A stretch of 64,000 nt of DNA from Candidatus Latescibacterota bacterium (GTDB lineage: Bacteria > Latescibacterota > UBA2968 > UBA8231): assembly GCA_965203355.1 (NCBI GenBank), contig OZ241889.1, positions 3,520,001 through 3,584,000 of the forward strand, read 5' to 3'. Below are positions 26,698 through 46,883 of the stretch, piece by piece. The notes under the pieces are model-generated. The model saw only the letters and a program-made list of their open reading frames with translations. It did no database searches and had not been told where the DNA came from. The translations under genes and the position numbers were made by a program. Numbering within the stretch: position 1 is the first letter of the stretch; each line of letters starts with the position of its first letter.

Positions 26698-26730
26698 CTT
26701 TTCAGTCCTGTTTTCTGATGAGATGAGCCG

Positions 26731-26855
26731 ATGCCCCCCGCAACTGCAAGCGTCTGGCGGAAGTGGATTTTCCGATCGTGGTGCTGTCGCGGTACGCGAC
26801 GCGGGAAAAGTCGATTCGGCCCCCCCTCGACGCTTCGTATGTGGTGGCGCGGCGA
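26731..26855 (+). pseudogene. Decayed duplicate of the 5' end of the DUF1156-like methyltransferase gene
   Basis: Reads [25 protein letters not shown] against [25 protein letters not shown] in the gene starting at 27706; followed by indels. Confidence 0.88.
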
Positions 26856-26917
26856 TTCTTGACAGCATGTTTTGCTATCATTAGGCTCTTTCGCCTCAAA
26901 CCGATAAGGAGGCTGCG

Positions 26918-27615: not shown

Positions 27616-27705
27616 CAGGCGGTTCCACTGGCGGCGTTGCTTGGTGATCAGCCGAACGAATTTTTCAAGCACCATCCTGCCTCGGCAGAAACAGAAAGAG
27701 AATCC

Positions 27706-30700: not shown

Positions 30701-30718
30701 CTGGCCGTGCCGAGGTAA
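27706..30718 (+). CDS. DUF1156-family adenine DNA methyltransferase, frameshifted at a G15 tract (probably phase-variable)
   Basis: [20 protein letters not shown] (motif I), CxxxxC and CxxC motifs, TDPPYYD (motif IV), FAHKTTEGW. The two ORFs (ending 28530 and starting 28505) join if one G is lost from 28509-28523. Confidence 0.88.
28490..28589 (+). repeat. 21-bp direct repeat flanking a G-tract/AT-rich insert inside the methyltransferase
   Basis: CGCCGAGCGTCAAATTTGAGG at 28490-28510 and 28569-28589 (79-bp period); between them are the G run and the hairpin AGTTGTT-TTTT-AACAACT. Confidence 0.95.
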
Positions 30719-30738
30719 GAACGCAAAAAGAGGATACC

Positions 30739-32109
30739 ATGAACCAAATCACGCTCAAAAACTTTCGCTGCTTTCGGGAGGAACAGACTGCCCGCTTAGC
30801 ACCGCTGACGCTGCTCGTCGGCGAGAACAGCACCGGCAAAACCTCGTTCATGGCTATGCTCCGAGTACTTTGGGATATGGTCTGTCGAGGGGAATCTCCT
30901 GACTTCAAGGAGGATCCCTACGACCTCGGCAGCTTTGACGAAATAGCACACTTCCGCGGCGGACGGGGCGATCGGGCAACCACTATTGAGGCAGATTTTG
31001 AGATCATTCCTGTACCCAAATCCAAAAAAAATGAACGGTTTCGTTTTGAAGTAACTTTTCAAAAAAAGGGGACCGTACCAGTACCAGTACGAAGACATTT
31101 TTGGCAAGAGGATGTGTGGGTAGAGTTTTCGCAATTGGCTGGCCAATTTGAAGAAAGTGAGATTCGCTTCGGAACCAAAAGGGGCACTTGGAAGCTTGAA
31201 CATACGCATACTACCGAACTTATCAGTAGTCTGACGGGTATGAATTTTCCTCTTTTTTTATCTATTAGCCACTTAATTACAGAAAACTCTCAATGGACCG
31301 CACTGTCAGGCTCGAAACAGCCTATACCTATAGACGAAGACTTTGAACAAATCCATAAAATTTCGTCCTTTCTATTCGAACGCTATCGCTCTTACTCAGA
31401 AAGGCCGTATGCCAGCGCACCGGTCCGCTCCAAACCGCGTCGCACATACGACCCCGCACGACCAACACAGGACCCCGAGGGCAATTACATCCCCATGTAT
31501 CTGTCCAACTTGTATTTTCAAGACAAAAATAAATGGGGAAAACTCAAAGAAGCCCTCGAAGATTTCGGTAAAAACGCAGGGCTTTTTGATGAAATTTCAG
31601 TCAAACCTTTGGGAAAGAAGGAGACAGAGCCTTTTCAAATGCAGGTCCGAAAGTCCGGGAAAAGGATTAAGGGGCCACAGCGGAACTTGATTGACGTAGG
31701 TTATGGGGTAAGCCAAGTACTCCCCGTCGTCACCGAGTTACTGCGTCCCGACGCCCCGTCCATGTTTCTGCTACAGCAACCGGAAGTACATCTCCATCCC
31801 AGCGCCCAAGCCGCGCTGGGTAGCCTGTTCTGTCAAGTCGCCGATCCGCAGCGTCAGTTGGTGGTCGAGACGCACAGCGATCACCTGATCAATCGGGTGC
31901 GGATGGATGTTCGCGATGGCGATGGCAAGCTAAAACCCGAAGACGTTTCCATCCTCTTCTTTGAACGGCGAGACCTCGACGTACACATTCATTCGCTGGA
32001 AATAGACGCCGAAGGGAACATCCTGAACGCCCCTCCGATTTATCGACAGTTCTTCATAACTGAGATGGAACGGTCTATTTGGAAGAGACGGAAGTCTAAA
32101 GGGAGTTAA
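30739..32109 (+). CDS. ABC/AAA_21-type ATPase with DUF3696-like C-terminus
   Basis: LKNFRCF, GENSTGKT, DVGYGVSQVLP, QQPEVHLHP, ETHSDHLI; AT-rich central region. Confidence 0.85.
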   Translation: MNQITLKNFRCFREEQTARLAPLTLLVGENSTGKTSFMAMLRVLWDMVCRGESPDFKEDPYDLGSFDEIAHFRGGRGDRATTIEADFEIIPVPKSKKNERFRFEVTFQKKGTVPVPVRRHFWQEDVWVEFSQLAGQFEESEIRFGTKRGTWKLEHTHTTELISSLTGMNFPLFLSISHLITENSQWTALSGSKQPIPIDEDFEQIHKISSFLFERYRSYSERPYASAPVRSKPRRTYDPARPTQDPEGNYIPMYLSNLYFQDKNKWGKLKEALEDFGKNAGLFDEISVKPLGKKETEPFQMQVRKSGKRIKGPQRNLIDVGYGVSQVLPVVTELLRPDAPSMFLLQQPEVHLHPSAQAALGSLFCQVADPQRQLVVETHSDHLINRVRMDVRDGDGKLKPEDVSILFFERRDLDVHIHSLEIDAEGNILNAPPIYRQFFITEMERSIWKRRKSKGS

Positions 32110-32112
32110 GCA

Positions 32113-32586
32113 ATGTGTGCAATTGTTGATGCGAATGTAGCCAATGAAGTTTTCGGTCCTAACCAATCTCCGGCCGGAGAGAAATTCTATGATTGGATCA
32201 ACAAAGCAAAGGGGCGCTTGGTAGTGGGCGGCAAGTTGCTTAAAGAACTCAAGAAATGTTCACCAACATTCAGAAAAGAACTGGTGATTACGTTAGGTAC
32301 GTTATTAGAAGCAGGCAGGATGAGAATCGTGAACGCAGATCAAGTCAATACCAAGGCAAAAGAGCTCAAGAGCAAATGCGATTCAGATGATCCACATATC
32401 ATCGCCTTAGCCCAAATCAGCGGTGCCCGTCTGTTATACACTAATGACGAAGGACTACAGCGGGATTTCAAGGACAAACGTCTAATCAATCAACCGGAAG
32501 GTAGGATCTACACCACAGTTCAAAACAACAACTTCACTTCTACCCACAAGAGCCTGCTTAGACAGCGAAACCTATGCCAGAGATAA
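32113..32586 (+). CDS. PIN-like domain protein
   Basis: IVDANV, SDDPHIIALA, LLYTND..L acidic PIN-type motifs; GGGAG RBS. Confidence 0.7.
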   Translation: MCAIVDANVANEVFGPNQSPAGEKFYDWINKAKGRLVVGGKLLKELKKCSPTFRKELVITLGTLLEAGRMRIVNADQVNTKAKELKSKCDSDDPHIIALAQISGARLLYTNDEGLQRDFKDKRLINQPEGRIYTTVQNNNFTSTHKSLLRQRNLCQR

Positions 32587-32620
32587 CTGCTCCGCGACTA
32601 CCGGCAGCACCGAGCCAATC

Positions 32621-34303
32621 ATGATCCGCCGTGTGACAATCAAAAACTTCAAGCGCTTCCGTGAACAGGAATTTGAGCTTGCAGAATCAGTCGTCCTTGC
32701 CGGGCCGAACAACGCCGGTAAATCAACGTTGCTCCAATCTGTTGCGCTCTGGAAGTTCGTGCTAGACCGCTGGGTTGCTCAACGGGCGGGCGGAAGAGCC
32801 GTTAAGCGTTCGGGTGTCGCTATCCCGCGCACTGACATCACCGCAGTCCCGCTCCGCGAGATGAACCTCCTTTGGGAAGACCGGAAAGTAACCGGCCCTC
32901 GCGGCATGTCCGACGCACGGCGGTTGATCGAGATCGTCGTGGAAGGACAGACAAACGGGCAAAACTGGACGTGTGGGCTTGAGCTCCAGTACAATAATCC
33001 CGAGTTGATTCACGCGCGGCCTCAAGGTGCAAAGAACCTCAATAGCGAAGCCATACGCGCCTTTCCGCCAACGGAAGCCCAGGAACTCTCCATCGTTCAC
33101 GTCCCCCCGCTCTCCGGCATTGAACACGACGAGCCTCGGCGCGATCGAGGCATGCAAGACTTGCTCATCGGTCAAGGACGACCAGGCGACATTCTGCGGA
33201 ACCTCCTGTTGGAAGTTGCCGAAAGCAACGATGCGGAAAACTGGCCGGCACTTGCGAGACACATCAAGGACCTCTTCCGCATCGAACTAATCAAGCCGAA
33301 TTACCAACCGGCTCAACCATATATCGTATGCGAATACCAAGAGCCGGGACACACGCGACCGCTGGATCTCTCAAACGCTGGCAGCGGAACGCTACAAGTG
33401 ATTCTTCTACTCGCTTTCTTGTACGCCCGCCCGGCCACGGTAATCCTGCTCGACGAGCCGGATGCCCACCAGCACATCATCCTACAACGGCAAGTGTACG
33501 ATCTCATCCGCAAAGTTGCGCACGAGCGTCAGGGGCAAGTCATTGTCGCAACCCACTCCGAGGTCATCCTCGATTCAACAGAGCCGACCCGGGTACTCGG
33601 CTTCTTCAGCCCAGCACCCCGTCCCCTTGCCGATAAAACCGAGCGCGATCAACTCCGCGAGGCACTCAAGCGCATTACCACCACGGACCTGCTGTTGGGC
33701 CAAGAAGTTGGGGGCGTACTCTATGTTGAAAGCGAGGCCGACGAGCGCATACTAAGCGAGTGGGCGCACATACTCAATCATCCAGCGCAGCGTTTCTTTG
33801 AGCGACCTTTTGTCCACTCGCTCGGCAGCAGGAGCCTTCGCGAAGCAAGAGCACATTTCTTTGCCATGCGGGCGGTTTGTCCAGACTTACGCGCCCTCTG
33901 TCTGCTCGATGGGGACAATAAAGACGAACCGGACGTGGAGATGCAGAATGCGGGTCTAGTCGTTCTACGCTGGCGCCGCTACGAAATCGAGAACTACCTC
34001 CTGCATCCAGAGGCCATTAAGCGATTTGCCGACTTCCCGTTGCTGCATACAAAAATTGACGACGCATTCTGGCGAGAGGTACCCCACGGGACCGATCTCT
34101 TTGGGAATCATGTCTCGCTTGTGCGCGTCAAGGCAAGCGACGAGTTCTTAGTACCGCTATTGGAAAAGCTCGGCATCAACACTCCCAAGAGAGAGCTATA
34201 TCTGCTGGCAGCCGCTATGAAAAAAGACGAGATCCACCCAGAGATACGCGAAAAACTCGACCACATCGCAGAGTCGCTCAATCCGCGGGAGACAGAGGCT
34301 TAG
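32621..34303 (+). CDS. ABC ATPase fused to a TOPRIM-like domain (OLD / DUF4435-type nuclease)
   Basis: IKNFKRF, GPNNAGKS, GSG, LLDEPDAH, ATHS; C-terminal LYVES..D, LLDGD, RYEIENYLL. Confidence 0.78.
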   Translation: MIRRVTIKNFKRFREQEFELAESVVLAGPNNAGKSTLLQSVALWKFVLDRWVAQRAGGRAVKRSGVAIPRTDITAVPLREMNLLWEDRKVTGPRGMSDARRLIEIVVEGQTNGQNWTCGLELQYNNPELIHARPQGAKNLNSEAIRAFPPTEAQELSIVHVPPLSGIEHDEPRRDRGMQDLLIGQGRPGDILRNLLLEVAESNDAENWPALARHIKDLFRIELIKPNYQPAQPYIVCEYQEPGHTRPLDLSNAGSGTLQVILLLAFLYARPATVILLDEPDAHQHIILQRQVYDLIRKVAHERQGQVIVATHSEVILDSTEPTRVLGFFSPAPRPLADKTERDQLREALKRITTTDLLLGQEVGGVLYVESEADERILSEWAHILNHPAQRFFERPFVHSLGSRSLREARAHFFAMRAVCPDLRALCLLDGDNKDEPDVEMQNAGLVVLRWRRYEIENYLLHPEAIKRFADFPLLHTKIDDAFWREVPHGTDLFGNHVSLVRVKASDEFLVPLLEKLGINTPKRELYLLAAAMKKDEIHPEIREKLDHIAESLNPRETEA

Positions 34304-34353
34304 CGATGGCGCATTGGTATAAAGCTGCGAAGCTGCCGTAGGGAGAATGTTCG

Positions 34354-34737
34354 ATGAGTAAAACCACCTTTTTGGAGGAATACCTTCGCCACCGACTCGG
34401 ACATCTATCGTATCCTAAAAAGATAATTCCGTATGTCCAGCGACATGAGTTTGAGGGACTGTTGTTCTCGGATGTAAGCGTTTTTACGGGCTTGATTGAG
34501 GCACCAGACGGATCGGTGCGAGCCTTGCAAGACATCCGTTCACAGTTCCAGACGCCCGAAGATATCAACGACAATAGCGACACGGCTCCGAGCAAACGGA
34601 TTAAGCAGGTTGTACCTAGATACTATAAGAATGTTGACGGCCCCCGTCTGGCAATGAGAATAGGCTTGGACGCGATTCGCGCTGAATGCCCTCGGTTCAA
34701 CAACTGGGTAACGAACTTGGAGTCGCTGGGGAACTAA
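34354..34737 (+). pseudogene. DUF4276-family protein, C-terminal fragment
   Basis: PYVQ.HEFEGLLFSD, PEDIND..TAPSKRI, IGLDAIRAECPRF..W; the N-terminal VEG..E TOPRIM-like motif is absent. Confidence 0.7.
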
Positions 34738-34779
34738 GATAAACCACCGCGTACACAACCGATCAAAGAGAGAGACAGC

Positions 34780-37569
34780 ATGGCCCTCGACCCTTGGTAT
34801 AAAATCGTAACGCTCCGTAAAGAAGTACGCGAAGGCCGCTCGTTCAGCCCAGACGAGTTCGCCATCGCCCTTGAGCAGATCGTCGCCCAAACCGCCCCCG
34901 CCGATTACCGCGATCCAGCGCAGTTCTTCTCGCGCACTTGCTTCACCCGCGCCCTGAAGGAACACGCTGGCATGGTCCTTCGGCGTCTTTCCGGCAAAAC
35001 CGAGAACACCGCACCGGTCCTCACGCTCGTCACCCAATTTGGCGGCGGCAAGACGCATACACTCGCTTCTCTGTACCATATCGCCAACGCCGGCGCAGAT
35101 GCCGCCAAATTCCCCGGCGTGTCAGCGCTCCTCAACGAGGCGGGCATGGCCGAAGCTCCGCCCGCTCGCGTCGGCGTTTTCGTCGGCAACGCTTGGGACC
35201 CAGCCGAAGGCCGCGAAACGCCTTGGATCGACCTAGCGCGCCAACTCGCAGGCGAGAAGGGCGTTGCAGCACTCGGCCCGGCCGCAAAAACCACGCCACC
35301 GGGCACCGAAGCACTGGCCAATGTATTCGCGGCTGCGGATGCGCCCGTGCTGCTACTGTTCGATGAAGTCCTCAACTGCGTCAACCGCCATCGCTCCATG
35401 GCCGAGCCTTTCCACGCCTTCCTGCAAAACCTGACCGTCGCCGTCACTGGCACCACGCAAGCCGCAGCGGTCATCAGCCTGCCGCGCAGCCAAGTCGAAA
35501 TGACCGATTGGGACCAACAGTGGCAAGACCGAATTACCAAGGTCGTGCGCCGCGTCGCCCGCGACCTGATCGCCAATGACGAATCCGAAATCAGCGAGGT
35601 CGTGCGCCGACGGCTGTTCGAGGACCTCGGCAACGAGCGCATTCGCAAGCGCGTCGCCAAAGCCTACGCGGACTGGTGCTTTGAACGCACCGCCCGCCTA
35701 CCTGCCGAGTGGCTGGCGGTTGATACCGCGACGACCGAGGCCAAGGCCAGGGAATTTCTGCGGGGCCGATTCGAGGCGTGCTATCCCTTTCATCCAGCGA
35801 CCCTTTCGGTCTTTCAGCGCAAGTGGCGTGCGCTCACCCAGTTTCAGCAAACCCGCGGCGCCATGGCCATGCTGGCGCAGTGGATTTCTTGGGCCGCACG
35901 CGAGCAGTTCACCAAGGCGCGAACTGAGCCGCTGATCACGCTGGGCTCGGCCCCGTTGGACGTGCCCGAGTTCCGCGCCGTGGTTTTGGGCCAGTTGGGC
36001 GAATCGCGGCTCGATGCGGCGATTGACGCGGACCTCGCCGGGACAACGGCCCGCGCCCGACCACTCGATGCAGATGTCAAGGGGGCACTGCGCGGCATCC
36101 ACGGTCGCGTGGGTACGGCCATTCTGTTTGAGTCCTCGGGCGGACAAATGGACAAGGTAGCCCATCTGCCGGAATTGCGTTTTGCGCTCGGCGAGCCCGA
36201 GATCGATACGGCGACCATTGACAGCGCGGCGACGGCTCTCGAAGGGTCGGGGTTTTTTATCCGCAAGGTCGGCACAGACGGCTATCGCATCCATCACCAA
36301 GCGACCCTGCGCAAGGTCGTCAGCGACCGGCGGGCCTCGCTCGACGAGGCTACCGAGATCAAGCCAGCGATCCGCAAGCTAGTCGAGGAACAGTTCAAGC
36401 GCGGCGCAACCTTGCCGCTAGCTTTCTTCCCCCCCGATAGCGGCGCAGTCCAAGATTCTCCGCGCCTCACCCTAATCGTCCTCGACCCCGACGTAGAATG
36501 GACCAACGGCAACCAAGTGGTCGAGCGCCTTGACCAGTGGACGCAGCAGCGGGGCACTTCGCCACGGCTATACCGAGCTTCGTTGGTGTGGTGTGCGCGG
36601 AAACCAGGCCGGGAACTGCGCGACAAAGCCGAGCTATGGCTTGCTTGGCAGCGCGTAGCGCAAGAGATGTCCGAAGGCATCCTCGGCTCAGAATACGACC
36701 GCGCCGACCGCGCCGAAATCCAGACCCAAGTGCGGGACGCCGAGCAAGCGGCCAAGGACGAAGTATGGGCTAGCTATCGCTTCGTGGCGCTGGCCGACAA
36801 TCAGGCAAAGCATCGGCTCAAGATCATCGACCTCGGCGCCGGTCATGCCAGCGCTAGTGAAACCCTCTGCGGACGGATGATCAGTGCGTTGAAATCCGAA
36901 GCCCTGCTCAACGAGAATGTGGGGGCGGGCTACCTCGATCGCCACTGGCCGGCGGCGTTCAAAGACACGGGTGCTTGGCCGCTGACCAGTTTGCGCCAGA
37001 GCTTTCTGAACGGTGCCTTGACGCGCTTGCTCGATCCCGATGCGGTACTGCGGCAGAAAATCGTTGAGTTTGTGGCAAAGGGAGAGTTCGGCCTAGCCTC
37101 TGGTGCCAAGGACGGCGGCGGCTTTAATAGGCTGTGGTATGAAGAGGCGGTCGCAGCCGAGGAAGTAGCGTTTGAGGACAATGTCTTCTTGGTAGCCAAG
37201 GACAAGGCCAAAGAACGCAAAACCGCCCCTCGAGATGCGCCGCAGACACAACCAGACCCGGCTCCAAGCCCAGAGCCCGTTCCCCGGCCAGAGCCTAGTC
37301 CAGCCAATCAAACGACCATGCTGCGGCTTACCGGCACCGTGCCGCCTGAACTCTGGAACCGGCTAGGCACCAAGCTACTGCCCAAGCTGCGCTCCGGGGA
37401 AGAGGTCAGCGTCGGCATAGAATTCGCCGTGCGCGTTAGCTTGCCATTGGCCCAGAACATGGAAACCGAATTACGGCAGGTGCTCGCCGATCTGAATCTA
37501 CAGGATCAGGTCCGCGTCGCACGATCACTCCCCCAGCCTACCCTTCCTCTCGCGCCACCTTCCCCTTGA
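34780..37569 (+). CDS. DUF499-family ATPase
   Basis: Y.DP..FF.RT, TQFGGGKTH (Walker A), LLFDE (Walker B), VVRRRLFE, CYPFHP, FQQTRG; Pro-rich linker near the C-terminus. Confidence 0.88.
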   Translation: MALDPWYKIVTLRKEVREGRSFSPDEFAIALEQIVAQTAPADYRDPAQFFSRTCFTRALKEHAGMVLRRLSGKTENTAPVLTLVTQFGGGKTHTLASLYHIANAGADAAKFPGVSALLNEAGMAEAPPARVGVFVGNAWDPAEGRETPWIDLARQLAGEKGVAALGPAAKTTPPGTEALANVFAAADAPVLLLFDEVLNCVNRHRSMAEPFHAFLQNLTVAVTGTTQAAAVISLPRSQVEMTDWDQQWQDRITKVVRRVARDLIANDESEISEVVRRRLFEDLGNERIRKRVAKAYADWCFERTARLPAEWLAVDTATTEAKAREFLRGRFEACYPFHPATLSVFQRKWRALTQFQQTRGAMAMLAQWISWAAREQFTKARTEPLITLGSAPLDVPEFRAVVLGQLGESRLDAAIDADLAGTTARARPLDADVKGALRGIHGRVGTAILFESSGGQMDKVAHLPELRFALGEPEIDTATIDSAATALEGSGFFIRKVGTDGYRIHHQATLRKVVSDRRASLDEATEIKPAIRKLVEEQFKRGATLPLAFFPPDSGAVQDSPRLTLIVLDPDVEWTNGNQVVERLDQWTQQRGTSPRLYRASLVWCARKPGRELRDKAELWLAWQRVAQEMSEGILGSEYDRADRAEIQTQVRDAEQAAKDEVWASYRFVALADNQAKHRLKIIDLGAGHASASETLCGRMISALKSEALLNENVGAGYLDRHWPAAFKDTGAWPLTSLRQSFLNGALTRLLDPDAVLRQKIVEFVAKGEFGLASGAKDGGGFNRLWYEEAVAAEEVAFEDNVFLVAKDKAKERKTAPRDAPQTQPDPAPSPEPVPRPEPSPANQTTMLRLTGTVPPELWNRLGTKLLPKLRSGEEVSVGIEFAVRVSLPLAQNMETELRQVLADLNLQDQVRVARSLPQPTLPLAPPSP

Positions 37570-38371
37570 CGACCCACTCGGCCAGCACCGGCCACAGGGC
37601 GTGAACCACCGCCAGCAGCCTGAGTCGCCTCGGCACGTAGAGCCGCTGCTGGCGCCGTTGCATCCCGCGCACAATCGCCTGCGCGGCCTGGTCTAAACGC
37701 ACCGCTTCCGCCCGGTGTTTGCGCGATGCAGCACCCAACGCCTTCCCGTCTTTCCCCAGTGCGCGTTGCCGCAACTCCGTCCCCTCGAGCCAGTGCAAGA
37801 GCACCGTCATCACCCCCACCCCGCTCTCGGCCACCTCCATCCGCAAGGCATCGCAAAACCCCTGTAGCGCGTGTTTGGACGCCGAGTACCCGGTGTGTAA
37901 CGGCACCCCCACCTGCCCCTGAATGGACGAAATGGCCACGAATAGGCCCTTGCTTTTTTTGAGGTGCGGCAGCGCCGGATGCACGCAGTGTACAGCACCC
38001 AAGTAATTCACTTCCATCAGCTTGCGGAACAAAGCCACATCCTCAACCGCGGCCAACTCGGTCCACATGCTAAGGCCGGCATTGGCGATCAAGTAGTCTA
38101 TGCGTCCAAAGCGCGCAATGGCCGCTTCCGCCAGCCGCTTGCCATCCTCAGCTAGGGCGACATCCCCAACGACGATCAGCACCTCGCTCCCCAACGGCTC
38201 GCACGCTTGGGCGACGGCCTCCAGCCGCGCGGCATTGCGCGCCAAGAGCACGAGCTGCGCGCCCTGCTGGGCACACTCCAGCGCCAGCGTCGCGCCCAAG
38301 CCCGCAGAAGCACCGGTGATTACAACGGTCTTATTGCTCAGGCTTCCGGCGCGCACGGCCAAAAATCCCAT
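37538..38371 (-). CDS. Short-chain dehydrogenase/reductase, DHRS7B-like
   Basis: TGASAGLG, ANAG, VNYLG, ISSIQG, YSASK; exact start uncertain; overlaps the upstream FAD enzyme. Confidence 0.85.
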   Translation of the reverse strand: MGFLAVRAGSLSNKTVVITGASAGLGATLALECAQQGAQLVLLARNAARLEAVAQACEPLGSEVLIVVGDVALAEDGKRLAEAAIARFGRIDYLIANAGLSMWTELAAVEDVALFRKLMEVNYLGAVHCVHPALPHLKKSKGLFVAISSIQGQVGVPLHTGYSASKHALQGFCDALRMEVAESGVGVMTVLLHWLEGTELRQRALGKDGKALGAASRKHRAEAVRLDQAAQAIVRGMQRRQQRLYVPRRLRLLAVVHALWPVLAEWVVKGKVAREEG

Positions 38372-40172
38372 TCTGAATGCCGAAAATATTTTGCGGATCC
38401 AGCGCTTCTTTGGTCTTGCGTAGGGCCTCAATGCTGTTTGCGCTCTGGATGTGCTGGACGAAGCGCTGCCGGATTTTGCCTATCCCGTGGTGGTGGGATA
38501 GCGAGCCGCCGTGGTCCAAGATCGTCTGCCGCAGCGCGTGCTCGATGTCGTGATAGACCGCAATCGGGCGCTCCAAGCCCCGCCCGGAAAGCCCCATCGT
38601 AAAGTAGATGCACACCCCGGTGTGGTACGTCTGCGTCACCCGGTACGACAAGTAGGGCCGCCCGGCAACGCCGCGGGCGCTACACTGCGCGGTCAGCTCG
38701 GCTTGCACGGCCTGCGTCACGTCGTGGATGCGGCTCCAAGGCACCGAGGTCTCAAAGGTCTCGCCCAAGAAATCGAACTGGTTCAAAAAATCGCGGATAT
38801 AGGCAATCCCAAAAGTCAGCATGTAGCCGCGCCGACCGTTAGTAGCCCCGGCACTTTTGCCGCCGTGGGCCTTGGCCAGCTTGAAAATCGTCCGCTTCTG
38901 GTGGTCCACCTCAGCGCGGGTCCCCTCCATGGCAATCGTACACGCCGCCATGGCGAGCGGATCAAACCCCAACACCTTTAGCAAAGCGAACTTTTGCACC
39001 TTTTCCTTGAGGTGCTGCCAAGAAGAAGGCGCGGCCTTGAGGGCCTGTCCAAAGCGGAACTCTTGGTTGTTGACCAAGCGAATACTCGCCGGCAAGGTCC
39101 CGGTCTGGCGCAAGGCCTGCAAGTACTCCACGCCTTGGGCAAAGGACTTGAACACCAGCGAACCGTATGCGCGCACGGCCGGTTGGGGATGGATCTTGAG
39201 CACGGCCTTGGTGATGATGCCGAGGTTGCCCTCCGAGCCAAAAAGCAGCCCGCGCGGCTGGATGCCGGTCGAGTTGCGCGGCGTAGCGTGCCGGGTCTCC
39301 ACGGCGCCAGTCGGCGTCACCAAGGTCGCTTCGAGGACGATGTCTTCGATATTGCCGTAGCGGTTTTTCTTCATGCCACTGGCGTTGGTCGCGATCCAGC
39401 CGCCCAAGGTCGAAAGCTCAATGCTGTCGGGATCGTGGCCGGCCGTGTAGCCCCGAGCCGCGAGCGCACGCTCCAGTTCCTTGCCCGAAATCCCGGCTTC
39501 AACGCAGGCCTGGAGATTTTCCTCGTCGAGCTCGACGATCCGGTTCATGCGCCGCATATCTACCGAAGCAAAGACGCGGTCGTCGTCGGTGGGCAAGGCC
39601 AGGGCACCGCTGACGTTGGTGCCGCCGCCGTAGGGCACGAGGCAAACGCCGTGCTCGGCCGCGAGGCGCACGATGGCGCACACGTGGTCTTCGCTCGCTG
39701 GATAAAGCACCAGATCGACCACGCGCTCCAAAGCATCGCCGTAGAGCAAGCGATAGACCTCATCAACGCTGAGCTGGCCGTGGCTGTGGATGAGGCGCTC
39801 GTCGTCGTCGAGCGACACCTGCTCGGCCCCGAGCGCGTCCTGCCAAGCAGCGACGAGGCTGGCGTCGGCCCGCGAAGGCGGCACCTCGTGGACCTCTTTT
39901 TCGACGGCCATCTCCTTGGGATCAATCGGAACTTGGAGCATCTCTTCGACAAAGGGGATGAAGTGCGGCATGGTAAAGCCAGCCAGCGGATAGCGGCTCC
40001 CGGTCACTCGCACGGTCTTCGGCCCGTCGAACTCAAAGCGAGTGTCCGCATAGCCCCACTTGTGCGGATGGCGCTCCCCGTCGGCGAGATCGTAGCACGC
40101 ATCGGCTGCGGCTTGACGGACCATGGCCGCCGCAACGGCGAACACCGCAATGGCGAGGACGATTTCGAGCAT
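38331..40172 (-). CDS. Alkyl-dihydroxyacetonephosphate synthase-like FAD oxidoreductase
   Basis: PYGGGTNVS, GHDPDS.ELSTLGGWIAT.ASGMKKN.YGNIED, GSEGNLG, PASIRL, FETSVPW, RVTQTY..G.CIYF, SLSHHHGIGK; GGAG RBS. Confidence 0.85.
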   Translation of the reverse strand: MLEIVLAIAVFAVAAAMVRQAAADACYDLADGERHPHKWGYADTRFEFDGPKTVRVTGSRYPLAGFTMPHFIPFVEEMLQVPIDPKEMAVEKEVHEVPPSRADASLVAAWQDALGAEQVSLDDDERLIHSHGQLSVDEVYRLLYGDALERVVDLVLYPASEDHVCAIVRLAAEHGVCLVPYGGGTNVSGALALPTDDDRVFASVDMRRMNRIVELDEENLQACVEAGISGKELERALAARGYTAGHDPDSIELSTLGGWIATNASGMKKNRYGNIEDIVLEATLVTPTGAVETRHATPRNSTGIQPRGLLFGSEGNLGIITKAVLKIHPQPAVRAYGSLVFKSFAQGVEYLQALRQTGTLPASIRLVNNQEFRFGQALKAAPSSWQHLKEKVQKFALLKVLGFDPLAMAACTIAMEGTRAEVDHQKRTIFKLAKAHGGKSAGATNGRRGYMLTFGIAYIRDFLNQFDFLGETFETSVPWSRIHDVTQAVQAELTAQCSARGVAGRPYLSYRVTQTYHTGVCIYFTMGLSGRGLERPIAVYHDIEHALRQTILDHGGSLSHHHGIGKIRQRFVQHIQSANSIEALRKTKEALDPQNIFGIQNGIFGRARRKPEQ

Positions 40173-40204
40173 AGATCAATCTCCTAATGAGTGCTCAATG
40201 ACTA

Positions 40205-41257
40205 CTACAGCCCTTCCTGGACATCCTTTTTCCGCACTTTCCATATAAAGGCATCGTAGTAGTAGTGAATCAGGGCAAAGGAACTGAGCAGCGAATAGCT
40301 AAAGAGGTCAAAGTTCGCGTTGAAGCCGACTAGACCAAAGCCAAAGTCGCGCACCAAGCCCTCGCTCAGCGCGTGAAAGACAACCGCATAGGCCGCGCAC
40401 AGCAAGAGAAAGAACTTGACACCTCCCTTGCTCGCCACGCAGCGCAGCAGGGCCGAGTCGCCGCCGGTGCGCTCGACCTTGTGGCGGTTGTAGAAATACA
40501 CCATGACGATGTACTGAATCCCGTGCATGATCCGGTGCGCCACGGCAAAGACGAGCAGATAGGCCGTGGTAAAACTGGTGAAGTACCACAGGAAATAGCT
40601 CGACAGCAAAAAGACGTACTTGAGGGGATTGAGCGCCAAGCCGCGCCAAGCGCAATAGGCGATATGCCCCACGTAGATTAGGCCGTAGGCTAGGGCCAGG
40701 GTCCACGATACGAGGTGTACCGTCTTTACCGCCTCCGCACTGATGGGCAGGTGCCACTCGTGCAACATCCGCACCCAGACCGTGGAAAATAGCGGCGACA
40801 CCACCAACATGTTGCCAAAGAAGATCCAATTGAAAGCCAAGTCGAACTTAGCGGTGGAGGGCGCGCCGGCCTTGGCTTTGAAATCGTACACGCGCGCAAA
40901 GCCGTATTGCTGCATCAAGCTGTGCTGATGATCCCACAAAGTCACGATCAACACCAAGCTCAACGGCGCCCACTGGATCAGGCCGTAAGCAAAGGCGACC
41001 AGCACGATCGGCCCGAGAATGAAGCGCTCCTTAAAGCGGGCAAATTCCGCGGGCGAGCCATACACGCGCAGCCAAGTGACGAAGTGGTGCGGGATCGTCA
41101 CCCACAAGGCAATGGCCGCCAGCGCCGCCCCCGGCAGGTAGTGCCCGGACACGAGCGCAAAGCAAACCGCCGCAAAGGGCAGACTCACAAACCAGATAGA
41201 GTCCTGCCGGCGATCGACGATATAGGCCGGTCGCAGGACGATGGAATTATTCGCCAT
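40205..41257 (-). CDS. Uncharacterised polytopic membrane protein with His motifs
   Basis: Many TM segments; PHHFVT, WDHQH...QQYG, HRIMHGIQY, HYYYDAFIWK. Confidence 0.7.
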   Translation of the reverse strand: MANNSIVLRPAYIVDRRQDSIWFVSLPFAAVCFALVSGHYLPGAALAAIALWVTIPHHFVTWLRVYGSPAEFARFKERFILGPIVLVAFAYGLIQWAPLSLVLIVTLWDHQHSLMQQYGFARVYDFKAKAGAPSTAKFDLAFNWIFFGNMLVVSPLFSTVWVRMLHEWHLPISAEAVKTVHLVSWTLALAYGLIYVGHIAYCAWRGLALNPLKYVFLLSSYFLWYFTSFTTAYLLVFAVAHRIMHGIQYIVMVYFYNRHKVERTGGDSALLRCVASKGGVKFFLLLCAAYAVVFHALSEGLVRDFGFGLVGFNANFDLFSYSLLSSFALIHYYYDAFIWKVRKKDVQEGL

Positions 41258-42812
41258 GAGAAGTAGCCAGCCGGGCGAGTGCCACAGCGTCTGGGCTGAA
41301 GCGGATTTCACGGGCGCGACGCTGGCGCAAAGAGGCGGCCAGTTCCTTAACCGCCGCTTGGAGCTGGTCCGCCGCCCAATCGGCCTCCACCTGTTCGCGG
41401 ATCTCGCTTAGCGGCGGCAGCCGGTCCGAGCGGCGGCTCAATACTTGCAGGACAATATAACCATTATCCGTGGCAAAGGGACCGTGCAAGGTGCCCTCGT
41501 CGGCGCGCAGGGCGCGGCTGACCGGATTATCGCCCGCCAACGCGCCGCTGCCGTAAATCACCTCGACAAAGCGATCCACGAGCTCGGTCGTGTCGCGACC
41601 GGTGCGCATCCGCTCGACAATGGCGGTGCCCTCGGCTTCGTCGCGGGCGAGCAGCCGGCGCACGGCCACCTCGGCCGGCGCGGTGTAGCGGAGCTTGTGC
41701 TCCTCGTAAAACAGGCTCAGACCGTTGGGATTGGGCGGTGGCACCTGCGCTTGTAGCGCGCCCTGCAAACGCCGCGCAAGCTGCATCTGCCGCAGTCGCT
41801 CCAACTCGCGTTGCAGACTCGGATCGGCGGCCAGCGCGAGCCGCGCCGTTTCGAGCGGGACCAACACGTGCCGCCCCACTTCGCGCCGCAGCACTTGCGC
41901 GCCCTCGCCTTGGCCCTTCAGCAGTTCGCGGGCCTGCGCGACCGTTAGCACGCCGCCGTCGTACGCGGCCACGACCGCTGCTGGCGACCCCATCAGCCCA
42001 TCCGGCTCGTAGCGCACATTATAGCGCACGTGCAATGTGTCGTAATAAGCCAAGAGCTGCCGCCCGAGCTGCTCCCGCAGCACCAAGCGCTGGATGGTCT
42101 CCCGCTCTTGCTCAAAACTAACCGGGTGCGCGTCTGTTAGCTTGATGAGAAAGTATCCATCAGCCACTTGCATCGGCTCGGAGATCTCACCGACTTGCAT
42201 GGAAAAGGCCCTTTCGGTTAGCGCGGCGTGCGAGGCCATCGTATCGCCCCAGCGATGGTAGCCCATGTCGGCTTGACGCTCTAGAATCCGCGCGTCTTGC
42301 GAGTGCTGCATCGACAGTTCCTCAAAGTCTGCCCCGGCCGCGAGCGCGGCCAAAATCTCCGGTAACTGCTGCTTTGAGCGCACCATCAGCAGACTAAAGC
42401 GCACGCGGCGGTTGTACGGGCTGCGCTGGAAATAGGCCCGCAGTGCCGCTTCGGCGACTTCGGGCTGCGCGATTCCAGCGCGCTTGTACAGGGCCTGCTG
42501 CACCAGCCGCTCCTGCGTCTGCGCCTGCCATTGGGCAAACTCGGCGCTCGCACCCAAGCCCCGCCGCTCGGCTTCCTGCACCAGCAGCACTTGCTCGACC
42601 AGGGCTTCCAACAACCACTCGGCCCCGTACTCGGCCCGCAATTCCGGGGCTATCCGCGCCGTGAACTGGCGGTAGTCGGCCACCCGAATCGCCGTTGGCC
42701 CCACCTCCACCAAGACGGCATCTTCAGCGGCCAGGGCCGGGCCGTCCTCGGCGCAGCCGCTTAGGCCGGCCAACGCCGAGCACAGCACCGCTCCCAGCCA
42801 ACACTTATTCAT
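41247..42812 (-). CDS. PpiC/parvulin-type peptidyl-prolyl isomerase (SurA/PrsA-like) lipoprotein
   Basis: LSGC lipobox; GADFEELS..HSQD, DMGY, GEISEP....GYFLIKL; second degenerate rotamase domain. Confidence 0.78.
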   Translation of the reverse strand: MNKCWLGAVLCSALAGLSGCAEDGPALAAEDAVLVEVGPTAIRVADYRQFTARIAPELRAEYGAEWLLEALVEQVLLVQEAERRGLGASAEFAQWQAQTQERLVQQALYKRAGIAQPEVAEAALRAYFQRSPYNRRVRFSLLMVRSKQQLPEILAALAAGADFEELSMQHSQDARILERQADMGYHRWGDTMASHAALTERAFSMQVGEISEPMQVADGYFLIKLTDAHPVSFEQERETIQRLVLREQLGRQLLAYYDTLHVRYNVRYEPDGLMGSPAAVVAAYDGGVLTVAQARELLKGQGEGAQVLRREVGRHVLVPLETARLALAADPSLQRELERLRQMQLARRLQGALQAQVPPPNPNGLSLFYEEHKLRYTAPAEVAVRRLLARDEAEGTAIVERMRTGRDTTELVDRFVEVIYGSGALAGDNPVSRALRADEGTLHGPFATDNGYIVLQVLSRRSDRLPPLSEIREQVEADWAADQLQAAVKELAASLRQRRAREIRFSPDAVALARLATSHGE

Positions 42813-44175
42813 GTTGCGTGCGCTCTTTCATCTGCTGGATTGCCGTTAGTGCTTGCTTGCTTGCTTCTACCTGGCCGGATTTCAAATACGCCACGGCCAG
42901 CTTCTGCCGGGCGTCGAGCCAGTCCGGCCGGGCCGCCACCGCCACGGTCAGCATCTCAGCAGCTTGGGCGTAGTCTCCAGCGCGTGCGTGTAGCAGCCCC
43001 AAAAAGTAATGCGTCTCCGCGTCTTCCGGTGCTAAGCGGCGCGCCTCCGCCAAAGTGGCTAGCGCTTCGTCAAAACGCTGCAAGCGCAGGTACGCCTGAC
43101 CGAGGTTGTAGTGCGCCTTGGCATAGGCTGGGTCCAAGGCCAGCGCGGCTCGGTACTCGGCGACCGCCTCGGCCAATTGGCCCAAGCGCAGGTACAGGTT
43201 CCCCAAGTTGTTGCGGTAGCGCAAGCTGTCCGGCGCGAGCCGCACGGCCAGCCGATACGCTTCGGCCGCCTCGGTCAAGCGGCCCTGCTCGGTGTACAGC
43301 AGGCCGAGTTGCGCCCGGGCCTCGTGGTCGTCGGGCGCATTGCCCAACATCCGCCGTTGGTCGTCGATTTTGTCGAGCTGTTGGTCGAGCGCCCGGAACT
43401 GAGCCAGCACAGCGGTGCTCTCCGCGCGGCGACCAAGCCGCTTGAGGGCATTGGCCAGCGCAAAGTACGCCTCCTTGGACAAAGAGTCGAGCGCACGGGC
43501 GCGACGGGCCGCGCGTTCAGCGGCCGCGTACTCGCCGCGCTTGAGCTCCACCTGCGCCAGAGCGACGTACGCGGCCGCGTCCGTGCTGTCCAGTTCGACC
43601 GCGTGCAAAAGCGCTTGGGCGGCGCGCTCAAAGTCGAGTTCTTTCAGGCGCGTCCGGCCCAAAAGCCGGTAGAAGGAGGCCTGGGTCGAATCGCGGTCCA
43701 AGCCCGCTTGTAGCAGCGTTTCTACCTCGGCGTACTCGCCGCGCAAGAAATAGATGTAGCCGAGGTCGTAGTACGTCGTCAGATGGCCGGGATCAAACGA
43801 GAGCACCCGGCGGTGTTCGTCAATCGCTTGGGCGTAGTTGAGCTGTTTGACGTACAGGGCCGCGAGGTTGTGCCGCGCCGACACATGCGTCGAGTCCAGC
43901 GCCAATACGCGCTGATAGGCCGCCATAGCACTGGGGTAATCGAGTTGGCGCGCGTAGGCGTTGCCGAGGTTGTAGTGGACTTTGGCCGATCCGGGGGCGA
44001 GCGCGGCGGCCTGCTGGTACGCGTCAATGGCCTCGGTATGGCGCCCGGCGGCCGCGAGCGCGGTGCCGCGCACAAAGAGCACTTCGGCGTCCATGGCCGC
44101 GCCCGGCCGCGCCTTTTCCTTTGTCGCTTCCTCCGCACAGGCGTATAATGCGAGGCAGATTAGCAGCCCCTTCAT
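42805..44175 (-). CDS. Tetratricopeptide-repeat protein
   Basis: Repeated HYNLG/NNLG TPR units; hydrophobic N-terminus with Cys; ATG at 44175 overlaps the upstream stop. Confidence 0.88.
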   Translation of the reverse strand: MKGLLICLALYACAEEATKEKARPGAAMDAEVLFVRGTALAAAGRHTEAIDAYQQAAALAPGSAKVHYNLGNAYARQLDYPSAMAAYQRVLALDSTHVSARHNLAALYVKQLNYAQAIDEHRRVLSFDPGHLTTYYDLGYIYFLRGEYAEVETLLQAGLDRDSTQASFYRLLGRTRLKELDFERAAQALLHAVELDSTDAAAYVALAQVELKRGEYAAAERAARRARALDSLSKEAYFALANALKRLGRRAESTAVLAQFRALDQQLDKIDDQRRMLGNAPDDHEARAQLGLLYTEQGRLTEAAEAYRLAVRLAPDSLRYRNNLGNLYLRLGQLAEAVAEYRAALALDPAYAKAHYNLGQAYLRLQRFDEALATLAEARRLAPEDAETHYFLGLLHARAGDYAQAAEMLTVAVAARPDWLDARQKLAVAYLKSGQVEASKQALTAIQQMKERTQHE

Positions 44176-45800
44176 CGCGCCGCTCCTTCGACGAGCCAAT
44201 GCTCTTGATTGACGCCTAAATTCTCGTATTGCTCGACCCGGCCACTCGGCCAATAGACGACTACGCGCTCAATGCCGGTGGATGTTCCCAACCCAAAGTG
44301 CAACCGCACATCGCTCTGCGAGAGGTAGCTAGCCCCCGAGCGCACCTCGTCCGTCTGCACCCGCCCGCCGCTGGCGATTTCGACGCGGGCACCAATGCCA
44401 GCGCGGTTGCTGTCGCGGCCCGTCAGCCGCAGGCGCACCCAGTGGCCGTGCGCGCCGTCATTGCGCATCAAGGTCGGCGCAGCCGCGACATTCGCGACCA
44501 GCACGTCCATGTCGCCATCGTCGTCGTAGTCGCCAAAAGCCGCGCCGCGACTGACCCGTTTCAACGACAGGGCACCCCGGTCGGCAGCGCATTCCTCAAA
44601 GCGGCCGTCGCCCCTATTGAGAAAGAGCTGATTGCGCTGCGGAAAGGTCGCGTTCTCGTATTGCTCGACATCGCTTTCCAAGTGGCCATTGGCGACGAAA
44701 AGATCGCGGTCGCCGTCGTTGTCCGCATCGAAAAAGCGCGTGCCCCACGCCAAGTAAGCAATGCTACTCTTGCCCAACCCGGCGAGAAACGTTTCATCGA
44801 CAAAGGTGCCATCGCCGAGATTCTTGTACAGCGTGTTGGTCTCCCACTGAAAGTTCGTGACGAAAAGGTCGGGATCGCCGTCGTTGTCGTAGTCGCCCAT
44901 GTCAACGCCCATGCCCGCTTCGACATCGCCGTCCTCGTTGTACGCCACGCCGGCCAACAGCGCTGCTTCGGCAAAGTGGCCCGTGCCGTCGTTGAGATAC
45001 AAAAAGTTCAAGGTCTTGTCGTTGGCCAGGTAGAGGTCGGGATCGCCATCGCGGTCCACGTCGCCGAAGACCACGCCGAGCTCCTTGCCCTCGGCACTGC
45101 CCAGCCCGGCCGCGGTCGTGATGTCGGCAAACGTGCCATCGCCCTCGTTCCGATACAACACATCGGACATCCCATCAAAGGCCTCCGGGCCGCAGTAGAG
45201 TTGCAGCCCGCTGCCCCCCTCGGCGCAGACGCGGTGATTGGCATAGGAAAAGTCGTGGTAGTTGCCCACGTACAAATCGACGAAACCGTCGCGGTCAATG
45301 TCGGCAAACGCGGCACTCGCCCCCCAGCCCTCGTCGCCGACTTGGGCCGCGGCCGTGACGTCGGCAAACGTGCCATCGCCCTCGTTCCGATACAGCACAT
45401 TAGCCCCGAAGTTGGTCGCGTACAAATCGAGATCGCCGTCGTTGTCCACGTCGCCGACCGCGCAGCCCATGCCGTAGCCGGTGTCGCCGACCCCAGCGAA
45501 CTCGGTCACATCGGCGAAGGTGCCATCGCCGCGATTGTGGTAGAGCGCGTTTTGCGGCGCTGGATCGTATTCGGTCCCGGGCACAGCAGCGCCGTTGATT
45601 AGATAAACGTCGAGGCGACCGTCGCCGTCGTAATCGAAAAAACCGCCGCCCGGACCAACCGTTTCAATGACGAATTTCTGACCGTTGGCTCCATTGACGT
45701 GGACGAAGTCGATGCCCGCTTCTTGGGTAGCGTCGTGGAAGCGGGGATTGGCGTACATGGGGACAGATGAAAACAGTAGCAGCAGAAAAAACTTGAGCAT
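44172..45800 (-). CDS. CRTAC1 / ASPIC-UnbV family protein
   Basis: Signal peptide, F.D.T.EAGIDFVH, D.D.DGD.D repeats, SNR.GIGARV, SYLSQSD.RLHFGLG, WPSG. Confidence 0.92.
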   Translation of the reverse strand: MLKFFLLLLFSSVPMYANPRFHDATQEAGIDFVHVNGANGQKFVIETVGPGGGFFDYDGDGRLDVYLINGAAVPGTEYDPAPQNALYHNRGDGTFADVTEFAGVGDTGYGMGCAVGDVDNDGDLDLYATNFGANVLYRNEGDGTFADVTAAAQVGDEGWGASAAFADIDRDGFVDLYVGNYHDFSYANHRVCAEGGSGLQLYCGPEAFDGMSDVLYRNEGDGTFADITTAAGLGSAEGKELGVVFGDVDRDGDPDLYLANDKTLNFLYLNDGTGHFAEAALLAGVAYNEDGDVEAGMGVDMGDYDNDGDPDLFVTNFQWETNTLYKNLGDGTFVDETFLAGLGKSSIAYLAWGTRFFDADNDGDRDLFVANGHLESDVEQYENATFPQRNQLFLNRGDGRFEECAADRGALSLKRVSRGAAFGDYDDDGDMDVLVANVAAAPTLMRNDGAHGHWVRLRLTGRDSNRAGIGARVEIASGGRVQTDEVRSGASYLSQSDVRLHFGLGTSTGIERVVVYWPSGRVEQYENLGVNQEHWLVEGAAR

Positions 45801-45816
45801 TTGATCGATGAGGTGC

Positions 45817-46083
45817 CTAGGGAAAGTGTTGGTAAAAATCTCGGCGCGACAAACAGCGGACGAAAGTTACGGTATTTTCGTTGAGTTGAAGGCCGAGCCT
45901 GTAACTGCCAACCCGAAATCGAAAACAATTGTCAAAACCGCTGATCTTGCGGACGTTATTTGCTTTTGTAAGGTCATTCACCCGCTCGATTTGCTCGATC
46001 GCCGTCCTAATACGCTCTTTAATAGATGGATCGCGGATCCGTCTGAGATCTCTGGTGAAGCTGTTACTAAACTCGAATTTCAA
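45817..46083 (-). CDS. RelE/ParE-family toxin
   Basis: 88 aa, basic; F.RDL..I, FRFRVGSYRLG, R.L.RRDFY..FP. Confidence 0.85.
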   Translation of the reverse strand: MKFEFSNSFTRDLRRIRDPSIKERIRTAIEQIERVNDLTKANNVRKISGFDNCFRFRVGSYRLGLQLNENTVTFVRCLSRRDFYQHFP

Positions 46084-46883
46084 GTTTTAATACTCGATCT
46101 CCTAAAATTTTAAACACCTGCTCTCTAGAGGCTCGTCCCGTTTCTTCGCCCTCTTTAATTGCATTTACCAGAGCAATATCTTCAAGAGCTTCCAAAAGTT
46201 TTTTCACGTCTTGGACGAACTCTCTCGCAAATTCTTTCCTTTTCTTTGGTGTCGACAGCCGCTTGAGTTTTTCCTTGGTGGGGTTGTACAGATTTAGATT
46301 TTTATCGACATATATCCACCAAGGATATCGACAACACTTGTCGTCTTCACTGCTCATGTGCTTCAATCCCCTCTTGAACATGGCGTACGAGTCTCTATGT
46401 TCCTCTTGGGGACAATAAACCCCGAACCAGAGGCATCCTTTGTCCTCTCCAATGTCGAGCGAACCAGCTTTACTCAATTCGTAGGATCGGCTTACATTAT
46501 CTCTATCTATTTGATCGGCTGGAATGGGTCTAAGTTCGGGAATCTCCGATTGCAGCAATTTCAGTTCAGAGTCAATTTCTTGCCAGAGTTTCTCGCGCAG
46601 TTCTGACACCACTTCATCCCAAGCCTCATGCAAGTCGCGGATGAGCACGAGATTGTTACTCTCCAAACAGAGCTTCTTTAAGTCATCCATATATTTCCTC
46701 CGGTAATCTGTGTCTGTCAGCTTTCGGACAAGCCGTAAGTATTGCGCGATCGACTCCCGCAATTCGGGTTCGTCGCAGGCGAGTTTTTGGCAACAAAACG
46801 TTGAAGGGCTCCGGTCGCCCGACCTCATACTTTTTGTAAAGCTGATCCGCTTCTTCTAATAAGTTGTGGTAATTATCGTTCAT
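46067..46883 (-). pseudogene. Internally deleted PD-(D/E)XK-like nuclease remnant ending in an antitoxin-like tail
   Basis: The N-terminus (MNDNY...PFNVL, from 46883) changes frame into LRESIAQYL.L...LT; the C-terminus EDIALVNAIKEGE...SREQVF overlaps the RelE start; AT-rich. Confidence 0.55.

Follow-up and report, generated by a model that had tools for sequence, protein, structure and literature searches.

In this study, we explored a pair of overlapping genes in a 64,000-nucleotide (nt) stretch of DNA from a Candidatus Latescibacterota bacterium (assembly GCA_965203355.1, contig OZ241889.1, positions 3,520,001 to 3,584,000; this whole stretch is called the window) by sequence, profile and gene-order comparison. 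The first gene encodes an orthologue of AGPS, the alkyl-dihydroxyacetone-phosphate (alkyl-DHAP) synthase of the ether-lipid pathway, and the second a classical short-chain dehydrogenase/reductase (SDR). We confirm that the pair is real, with the synthase accompanied by a conserved partner reductase, and we propose that both together constitute an ether-lipid module in which the SDR most likely acts as alkyl-DHAP reductase, a reading to which we assign a probability of roughly 0.6. On the grounds of gene order and co-occurrence, no bacterial protein is at present a better candidate than the SDR for the reduction step following AGPS. DHAP-route ether-lipid operons are common in Latescibacterota, and the window carries a two-gene form of one, detached from the rest.

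The gene pair and the identity of the synthase

Both genes lie on the minus strand, and coordinates refer to window positions unless a locus is named:

38331..40172, minus strand: AGPS orthologue (alkyl-DHAP or alkylglycerone-phosphate synthase), 613 residues, ATG start
40181..40185, minus strand: AGGAG ribosome-binding site, 8 nt 5' of the AGPS ATG, read from the sequence
37538..38371, minus strand: classical SDR, candidate acyl/alkyl-DHAP reductase, 277 residues, ATG at 38371

With this start, the 5' end of the SDR gene overlaps the 3' end of AGPS by 41 nt, while an alternative GTG start five codons further on leaves an overlap of 26 nt. The SDR open reading frame (ORF) is open up to a TTG at 38431 (37538-38431), and ATG 38371 is the likelier start. 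Scans for promoters and terminators across 37300-46200 returned counts not above those of shuffled sequence. The ORF coordinates of the initial annotation of this DNA proved exact, and the motifs quoted in it were all found in the translations (HHHGIGK in AGPS; ITGASAGLG, AISSIQG and YSASKHA in the SDR).

The first protein comprises a hydrophobic N-terminal stretch (residues 1-18), an AGPS-specific N-terminal region and the two flavin adenine dinucleotide (FAD) domains FAD_binding_4 (PF01565, 5.5e-41) and FAD-oxidase_C (PF02913, 3.1e-36), which is the architecture of a PCMH-type FAD enzyme. In phmmer searches of PDB sequences, it matched guinea-pig AGPS (4bby) with an E-value of 8.7e-147 and 493 bits, residues 37-601 of the query aligning with 94-656 of the chain, and Dictyostelium AGPS (2uuu) with 8.5e-85. 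The best chains outside this family were a putative oxidoreductase (3pm9, 4.1e-26) and a D-lactate dehydrogenase (8jdc, 1.9e-25), and the non-AGPS families as a whole, including glycolate oxidase, remained between about 1e-26 and 1e-24; they aligned only from about residue 152 onward, leaving the AGPS-specific N-terminal region unmatched. The NCBIfam model for GlcD scored 166.9 bits against a cut-off of 567.9. The initial annotation had favoured AGPS over a generic GlcD-like oxidase, and the gap between 8.7e-147 and 4.1e-26 bears this out; because of this gap a GlcD-like identity is untenable, a decision that rests on differences in bit score.

In the printed alignments, R365, T513, Y523 and H560-562 of the window protein coincide with R419, T568, Y578 and H615-617 of the guinea-pig enzyme, of which we take Arg419, Tyr578 and the His615-617 loop to be active-site residues. 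The mutant chains 4bc7 and 4bca differ from 4bby in the Arg (PASIRL) and Tyr (CIYF) columns, which correspond to R365 and Y523. Sequence comparison thus confirms a full-length AGPS orthologue with predicted active-site residues kept. Compared with the animal and amoebozoan enzymes (EC 2.5.1.26; 4bby from Cavia porcellus, 2uuu from Dictyostelium), the alignment extends over the full length, including the AGPS-specific N-terminal region and the FAD domains, and the equivalents of R419, T568, Y578 and H615-617 are kept. It differs from the animal protein in its short hydrophobic N-terminus in place of a peroxisomal targeting context, in the location of its gene in a bacterial operon-like run with the SDR, and in that its activity is predicted. 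The description of the pair as eukaryote-type is fair with respect to AGPS itself, but bacterial AGPS loci are already known, namely MXAN_1676-1674 of Myxococcus xanthus (PMC9131029).

Linkage of the two genes across relatives

Linkage was followed in 80 AGPS-related loci from species-representative genomes, and an SDR orthologue was counted as adjacent when located on the same strand within 2 kilobases (kb) downstream of AGPS. The closest relatives are metagenome-assembled genomes (MAGs) labelled Candidatus Latescibacterota and, in some cases, Gemmatimonadota, with AGPS identities of up to 95%; the window DNA is 91% identical to, and colinear with, one such locus (L001). By this criterion, 61 of the 80 loci have the SDR immediately after AGPS. 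These carry Latescibacterota or 'Gemmatimonadota' labels and additionally comprise a Marinimicrobia locus (L032), Acidobacteriota loci (L076, L078, L080) and a 'Trueperaceae' MAG (L049). Among the 19 loci without an adjacent SDR, four have at most 1191 nt left after AGPS (L019, L021, L023, L055), and two are Latescibacterota chromosomes (L051, L056), the genome of the former (G106) carrying the SDR elsewhere on the chromosome.

We additionally surveyed 167 genomes of the phylum, with thresholds of E <= 1e-100 for AGPS and E <= 1e-45 for the SDR and with the two presence lists compared by hand. AGPS was found in 124 genomes and the SDR orthologue in 118, with one match per genome at an identity of at least 47%. 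All 118 SDR-bearing genomes are AGPS-positive, so that 118 of 124 genomes with AGPS also have the SDR, against 0 of the 43 genomes that lack AGPS. The earlier expectation that the SDR is conserved next to AGPS therefore holds in synteny (61/80 loci) as well as in co-occurrence (118/124 genomes).

As a side observation, in the two Chloroflexota loci looked at, an ORF of 257 residues without Pfam match takes the place of the SDR downstream of AGPS (L065:11839-12612 and L073:11866-12639).

Ether-lipid operons in related genomes

The pair closes a longer run in 25 of the 80 loci, in the order fatty acyl-CoA reductase (FAR), orphan acyltransferase, AGPS, SDR. In locus L025, this run reads as follows:

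L025:6340-7974: FAR
L025:7996-9936: 646-residue protein
L025:9977-11824: AGPS
L025:11831-12706: SDR

The FAR of this locus combines NAD_binding_4 (4.7e-63) with Sterile (9.7e-16), an architecture of alcohol-forming reductases. The Marinimicrobia locus L032 carries a gene resembling 3-hydroxy-3-methylglutaryl-CoA reductase, a PF01553 acyltransferase, AGPS and the SDR. That two consecutive steps of ether-lipid synthesis are encoded together, as the initial annotation had suggested, is the best reading of the pair, since relatives place it at the end of a FAR-acyltransferase-AGPS-SDR operon.

The second gene of this operon encodes a protein of about 650 residues (646-660), of which the first two thirds are helical and the C-terminal third resembles GPAT and PlsC. 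Most members are without any Pfam or NCBIfam match, PF01553 being detected in four of 13 with a best E-value of 2.4e-4, and a profile of the family searched against PDB sequences gave nothing meaningful (best E 0.31). The motifs comprise an invariant His in HQSxxD/E, YPMGTT and VPI. For an AlphaFold2 model (mean confidence, pLDDT, 82.5), the top Foldseek matches were PlsC (5kym), plant GPATs and human GPAT1, with probabilities of 0.97-1.0, yet with weak E-values of 3e-3 to 3e-2; PatA was among the top matches too, likewise at high probability, and extends the range of E-values to 4e-2. Based on this model, the orphan protein may be read as a divergent glycerolipid acyltransferase.

In the clade of the window (L001-L022, AGPS at least 77% identical), FAR and acyltransferase are not located beside AGPS, and the AGPS-SDR pair sits behind an unrelated run of membrane-protein, peptidyl-prolyl isomerase, tetratricopeptide repeat (TPR) and FG-GAP genes. 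The initial annotation had stated that no DHAP acyltransferase or FAR is present in the window, in agreement with our tblastn searches of the window, in which neither a FAR, nor either of two orphan acyltransferases, nor the ElbD-like protein described next, all taken from relatives, gave a match at E <= 1e-3. In G001, a complete chromosome and the closest complete relative, whose AGPS is 95% identical, these functions are dispersed: the orphan acyltransferase is encoded elsewhere with 46% identity (L094:1498-3438), as is a 1424-residue protein combining FAR, AMP-binding and acyltransferase parts in an ElbD-like architecture (L091:6671-10945), followed by lgt. Upstream of this ElbD-like gene, on the opposite strand, MlaE- and MlaD-family genes and a gene resembling diacylglycerol kinase were observed.

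Fusions between these genes were considered as well. Long frames in G045, G075, G096, G112 and G113 are upstream extensions and not AGPS-SDR fusions, and a 1250-residue acyltransferase-AGPS protein (P0249) is probably a frameshift, as the alignment is interrupted some 70 residues short of the acyltransferase's end and the protein stems from a single contig; G093 has four separate ORFs and no fusion. Proteins of 1147-2365 residues combining acyl-CoA-binding protein, AGPS, FAR and acyltransferase domains were observed separately (P0250-P0264), and the two of them with organism names belong to stramenopiles (Seminavis robusta, Phaeothamnion confervicola). A further protein of 1060 residues joins a class I/II aminotransferase to AGPS (P0077).

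The wide occurrence of the pair and of the full biosynthetic operon with FAR and acyltransferase in the phylum also bears on the idea that the pair salvages or remodels ether lipids of an animal host and takes no part in de novo synthesis. In favour of this alternative, which the initial annotation had raised, two DNA runs with about half of the sampled words of the stretch (share 0.46) are labelled 'sponge metagenome', and elbD and agps matches were reported in sponge-associated Latescibacterota MAGs (bioRxiv 10.64898/2026.06.23.733905). However, free-living members of the phylum have AGPS as well, homologues being reported for 67 of 92 Latescibacterota MAGs from the Black Sea (PMC11868695), and Pfam and NCBIfam annotation of the window revealed no lipase, ether-cleaving enzyme or transporter linked to the pair. 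Nothing that we found supports host-lipid remodelling, and we consider it very improbable.

The reductase and its relation to DHRS7B

The SDR matched Pfam adh_short with 3.6e-47 and the NCBIfam model NF004825 with 281 bits (cut-off 215). It carries the TGxxxGxG motif and the Asn-Ser-Tyr-Lys residues of classical SDRs in the motifs TGASAGLG, ANAG, NYLG, SSIQG and YSASK, and among 20 orthologues TGASAGLG, NYLG, SSIQG and YSASK are invariant or nearly so. An Arg after the second beta strand, here within 'LLARN', marks a preference for NADPH as a general rule in SDRs and suggests, as far as can be predicted, NADPH as the cofactor.

When the single sequence was searched against the PDB, 11beta-hydroxysteroid dehydrogenase 1 (11beta-HSD1) was the top match with 97.6 bits, narrowly ahead of the next family at 92.5. 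With a profile of 20 AGPS-adjacent SDRs this order changed to clavaldehyde dehydrogenase (143.9 bits), hydroxyacyl-CoA dehydrogenase (141.9) and 11beta-HSD1 (128.3). It should be noted that this family comparison consists of PDB bit scores, with no DHRS7B sequence or structure among the targets. A protein atlas search with the SDR returned generic bacterial SDR clusters only. In the 277-residue form, residue 19 is the first of the Gly motif, and the residues before it, read by eye, do not form a hydrophobic helix. DHRS7B, by comparison, is a type I membrane protein with a single N-terminal transmembrane domain, and the mammalian enzyme acts on both acyl- and alkyl-DHAP (PMC7517302). Because the position of the Gly motif leaves no room for it, the window SDR is without such a domain.

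The initial annotation had described the SDR as closely following DHRS7B, a claim that we could not uphold, given the preference of the profile for other SDRs and the missing room for the transmembrane domain. Common to the window SDR and mammalian DHRS7B/PexRAP (EC 1.1.1.101), DHRS7 and yeast Ayr1 are the chemistry of classical SDRs, TGxxxGxG and Ser-Tyr-Lys, and with DHRS7B it further shares the proposed place in the pathway after AGPS; it differs in the absence of the N-terminal transmembrane domain, and placement in the DHRS7B/11beta-HSD1 branch is not demonstrable. Genomic context thus supports that the SDR works like DHRS7B, whereas membership of the DHRS7B family is not demonstrated by sequence, and the SDR may be a non-orthologous analogue.

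The same family scores leave room for an action of the SDR at another step of the pathway, such as the conversion of fatty aldehyde to the fatty alcohol required by AGPS, or on another keto-lipid. Classical SDRs of this broad type include alcohol-forming as well as keto-reducing enzymes, with clavaldehyde dehydrogenase and hydroxyacyl-CoA dehydrogenase heading the profile matches, and synteny and co-occurrence connect the SDR to AGPS but do not say which step is carried out. On the other hand, the operons already contain a FAR with NAD_binding_4 and Sterile domains, and reduction of alkyl-DHAP is the sole step of the animal route for which the four-gene operon offers no other candidate. We therefore regard a role at another step as improbable.

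Glycerolipid synthesis in the phylum

A second alternative concerns the range of substrates. The SDR could be a general acyl-DHAP reductase of a lineage that gave up acylation of glycerol-3-phosphate (G3P), producing both 1-acyl- and 1-alkyl-G3P, with AGPS diverting part of the flux to ethers. The distribution of the usual G3P-route families fits this idea. All five related genomes G001-G005 are without PlsY, PlsX, the C-domain of GpsA and the GPAT_C domain of PlsB, for which the control searches were positive in 8, 9, 10 and 1 of 14 reference genomes, respectively. Of the 167 genomes of the phylum, 29 encode PlsY, 29 encode GpsA and 131 encode the orphan acyltransferase; the overlap is confined to a single genome (G039), and eight have neither PlsY/GpsA nor the orphan acyltransferase. 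This near-exact complementarity suggests that the acyltransferase has replaced the usual start of phospholipid synthesis, and the activity of mammalian DHRS7B on both acyl- and alkyl-DHAP (PMC7517302) provides a precedent for a reductase of broad range. In G039, PlsY and GpsA are located on one contig (C80) and AGPS and the orphan acyltransferase on another (C112); this genome could represent a transitional lineage or a mixed bin.

However, the distribution of the SDR tracks that of AGPS, not that of the acyltransferase. The acyltransferase occurs without AGPS and SDR in nine genomes (G013, G042, G044, G066, G079, G150, G151, G153, G154), of which G066 and G079 are possibly just incomplete. 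Four of the nine were searched again. No SDR relative appeared at E <= 1e-25 in G042, G044 and G013, and the sole match in G150 was a paralogue of 37% identity. The same search of G043, whose AGPS is divergent, was negative too. In the nine acyltransferase-only genomes, lipids are therefore made without the SDR, and its tie to AGPS favours a role in the ether branch over that of a general acyl-DHAP reductase. The orphan acyltransferase may moreover use either DHAP or G3P, PlsX, PlsY, PlsB and GpsA being the G3P-route families that were searched. We consider a general acyl-DHAP reductase unlikely, and assign a similarly low probability to the wider scenario in which this branch is devoid of any G3P acylation start. 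In that case the orphan acyltransferase would supply acyl-DHAP as the first intermediate of every membrane glycerolipid, the SDR would create the G3P backbone as 1-acyl- or 1-alkyl-G3P, and AGPS would turn a large share into ethers. If it were true, an entire bacterial lineage would operate the 'peroxisomal' route, with ether lipids as a constitutive bulk constituent of its membranes.

Proposed pathway and points against it

We propose a model in which the SDR serves as alkyl-DHAP reductase. By analogy with the animal and Myxococcus enzymes, AGPS would replace the acyl group of 1-acyl-DHAP with a fatty alcohol, yielding 1-O-alkyl-DHAP, and the SDR, as gene order and co-occurrence suggest, would reduce the keto group to 1-O-alkyl-sn-glycerol-3-phosphate, which could enter ordinary phospholipid synthesis via an acyltransferase of the PlsC type. 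The substrates would come from genes outside the window, namely an orphan acyltransferase and an ElbD-like fusion as in G001. CarF/PEDS1 (PF10520) was found in none of G001-G005, but also in none of 14 control genomes, and carries little weight; its absence from the five related genomes would point to alkyl (plasmanyl) lipids instead of plasmalogens, in a search without positive control.

Several observations weigh against this model. With respect to linkage, 13 of the 80 loci, labelled Chloroflexota or Planctomycetota, have AGPS without such an SDR alongside, and six AGPS-positive genomes miss the SDR at E <= 1e-45 (G039, G043, G096, G120, G123, G152), G096 showing a partial SDR at a contig end. 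Co-occurrence of AGPS and SDR is furthermore structured by clade and therefore corresponds to few independent events, the pattern being strong otherwise. The presence of FAR and acyltransferase in the organism of the window is inferred from relatives, and the SDR appears by sequence as a generic classical SDR that is not placeable with DHRS7B. The roles of both proteins are predicted, and disruption of the AGPS homologue in Myxococcus xanthus was reported to lower ether lipids only slightly (PMC9131029).

With respect to expression, contigs from RNA libraries (four metatranscriptome-library runs from two studies) match the stretch at 88-95% likeness and cover 26 to 30 of 30 window bins, depending on the run. 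The AGPS/SDR junction is bridged by X20 record 21, X17 record 13 and X16 record 5, and a contig of X15 (record 3) spans 37794-41400, bridging the junction with the upstream membrane-protein gene as well. As DNA may be present in such libraries and their contigs do not prove one continuous transcript, they provide a hint of expression only, which likewise limits the support for the model.

Neighbouring genes in the window

Directly upstream of AGPS, a further gene is encoded in the same direction:

40205..41257, minus strand: polytopic membrane protein, family unassigned, 350 residues, 32 nt upstream of AGPS

About 12 helices are predicted for this protein, and H57, H112, H245 and H331 are invariant across its paralogues. 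No Pfam or NCBIfam match was found; the best PDB match in Foldseek had an E-value of 0.088, and the best VIA-align Z of 6.8, to rhodopsins, lies under the noise level of this tool for helical bundles. Its G001 and G002 paralogues, at 25-29% identity, carry C-terminal TPR repeats, and one of them is encoded beside an FG-GAP/ASPIC gene; TPR and FG-GAP/ASPIC genes are types also encountered upstream in the window. Of the 22 closest loci, 20 have this gene upstream of AGPS, the exceptions being L017, where the sequence leaves no room for it, and L021, which lacks it; none of the 58 more distant loci has it there. A desaturase of the CarF/PEDS1 kind was considered on account of the conserved His motifs and rejected in view of the missing family or fold match, the TPR-fused paralogues and the 0/58 distant loci. 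We consider it unlikely that the membrane protein belongs to the ether-lipid module.

Elsewhere in the window, at 17713-21167 and 44172-45800 (both minus strand), a further TPR protein and one combining TPR with FG-GAP/ASPIC are encoded, resembling the run upstream of AGPS. At 46067-46828 (minus strand), an ORF of 253 residues matches the PADLOC candidate family PDC-S26 with 1.1e-28.

On the other side of the pair, right after the SDR and converging on it, a defence island of about 15 kb occupies 22373-37569 on the plus strand, in which two gene pairs interrupt an Hma system:

22373-25795, plus strand: HmaA, SNF2 helicase (PADLOC 1.4e-171)
27637-28530 and 28505-30718, plus strand: HmaB, DUF1156 methylase, split in two ORFs
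30739-32586, plus strand: AAA_15/AAA_21 ATPase and PIN protein, interrupting the Hma system
32621-34737, plus strand: AAA ATPase and DUF4276 protein (HEC-01A/B-like), interrupting the Hma system
34780-37569, plus strand: HmaC, DUF499 ATPase (2.4e-95)

L001, the relative with 91% DNA identity, lacks the segment 22384-37501, and a DUF499 gene adjoins the SDR in L002, L003, L005-L010 and L022.

Relation to known systems and significance

The occurrence of AGPS in Latescibacterota is known from the Black Sea MAGs mentioned above, and agps together with elbD has been reported from sponge-associated MAGs of the phylum. For Myxococcus, an AGPS operon is described (PMC9131029; bioRxiv 10.1101/2025.10.10.681575 / PMC13012113), and genetic evidence shows that its AGPS contributes to ether lipids (PMC9131029; bioRxiv 10.1101/2025.10.10.681575). 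As in the window, the AGPS of MXAN_1676-1674 is a bacterial one, clustered in Myxococcus with reductase and acyltransferase functions of the DHAP route. The window differs in that its nucleotide-dependent partner is a classical SDR (adh_short) and not a protein of the epimerase/dehydratase type, and in that FAR and acyltransferase, which are separate genes in its relatives, are absent from it; the acyltransferase of the relatives, moreover, belongs to an orphan family barely detected by Pfam. Clustering of all four functions as in Myxococcus is thus reduced to AGPS and SDR in the window, complete in 25 of 80 loci and dispersed in G001. A link between AGPS and an SDR is not mentioned in the accessible parts of the literature on Latescibacterota or Myxococcus AGPS, and our literature search found, among the matches listed, no bacterial enzyme assigned to the EC 1.1.1.101 step after AGPS, none being named in the accessible part of PMC9131029. 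AGPS itself is of a known kind here; what is new is the classical-SDR partner together with the orphan acyltransferase elsewhere.

Present in one copy per genome and tracking AGPS across a phylum, the SDR constitutes a concrete candidate for the bacterial EC 1.1.1.101 activity; combined with the orphan acyltransferase, it would complete a bacterial gene set for the DHAP route. Such a set would help to assign environmental 1-O-alkylglycerol lipids, including those from sponges, to their producers, and it bears on the relation between the eukaryotic and bacterial ether-lipid pathways.

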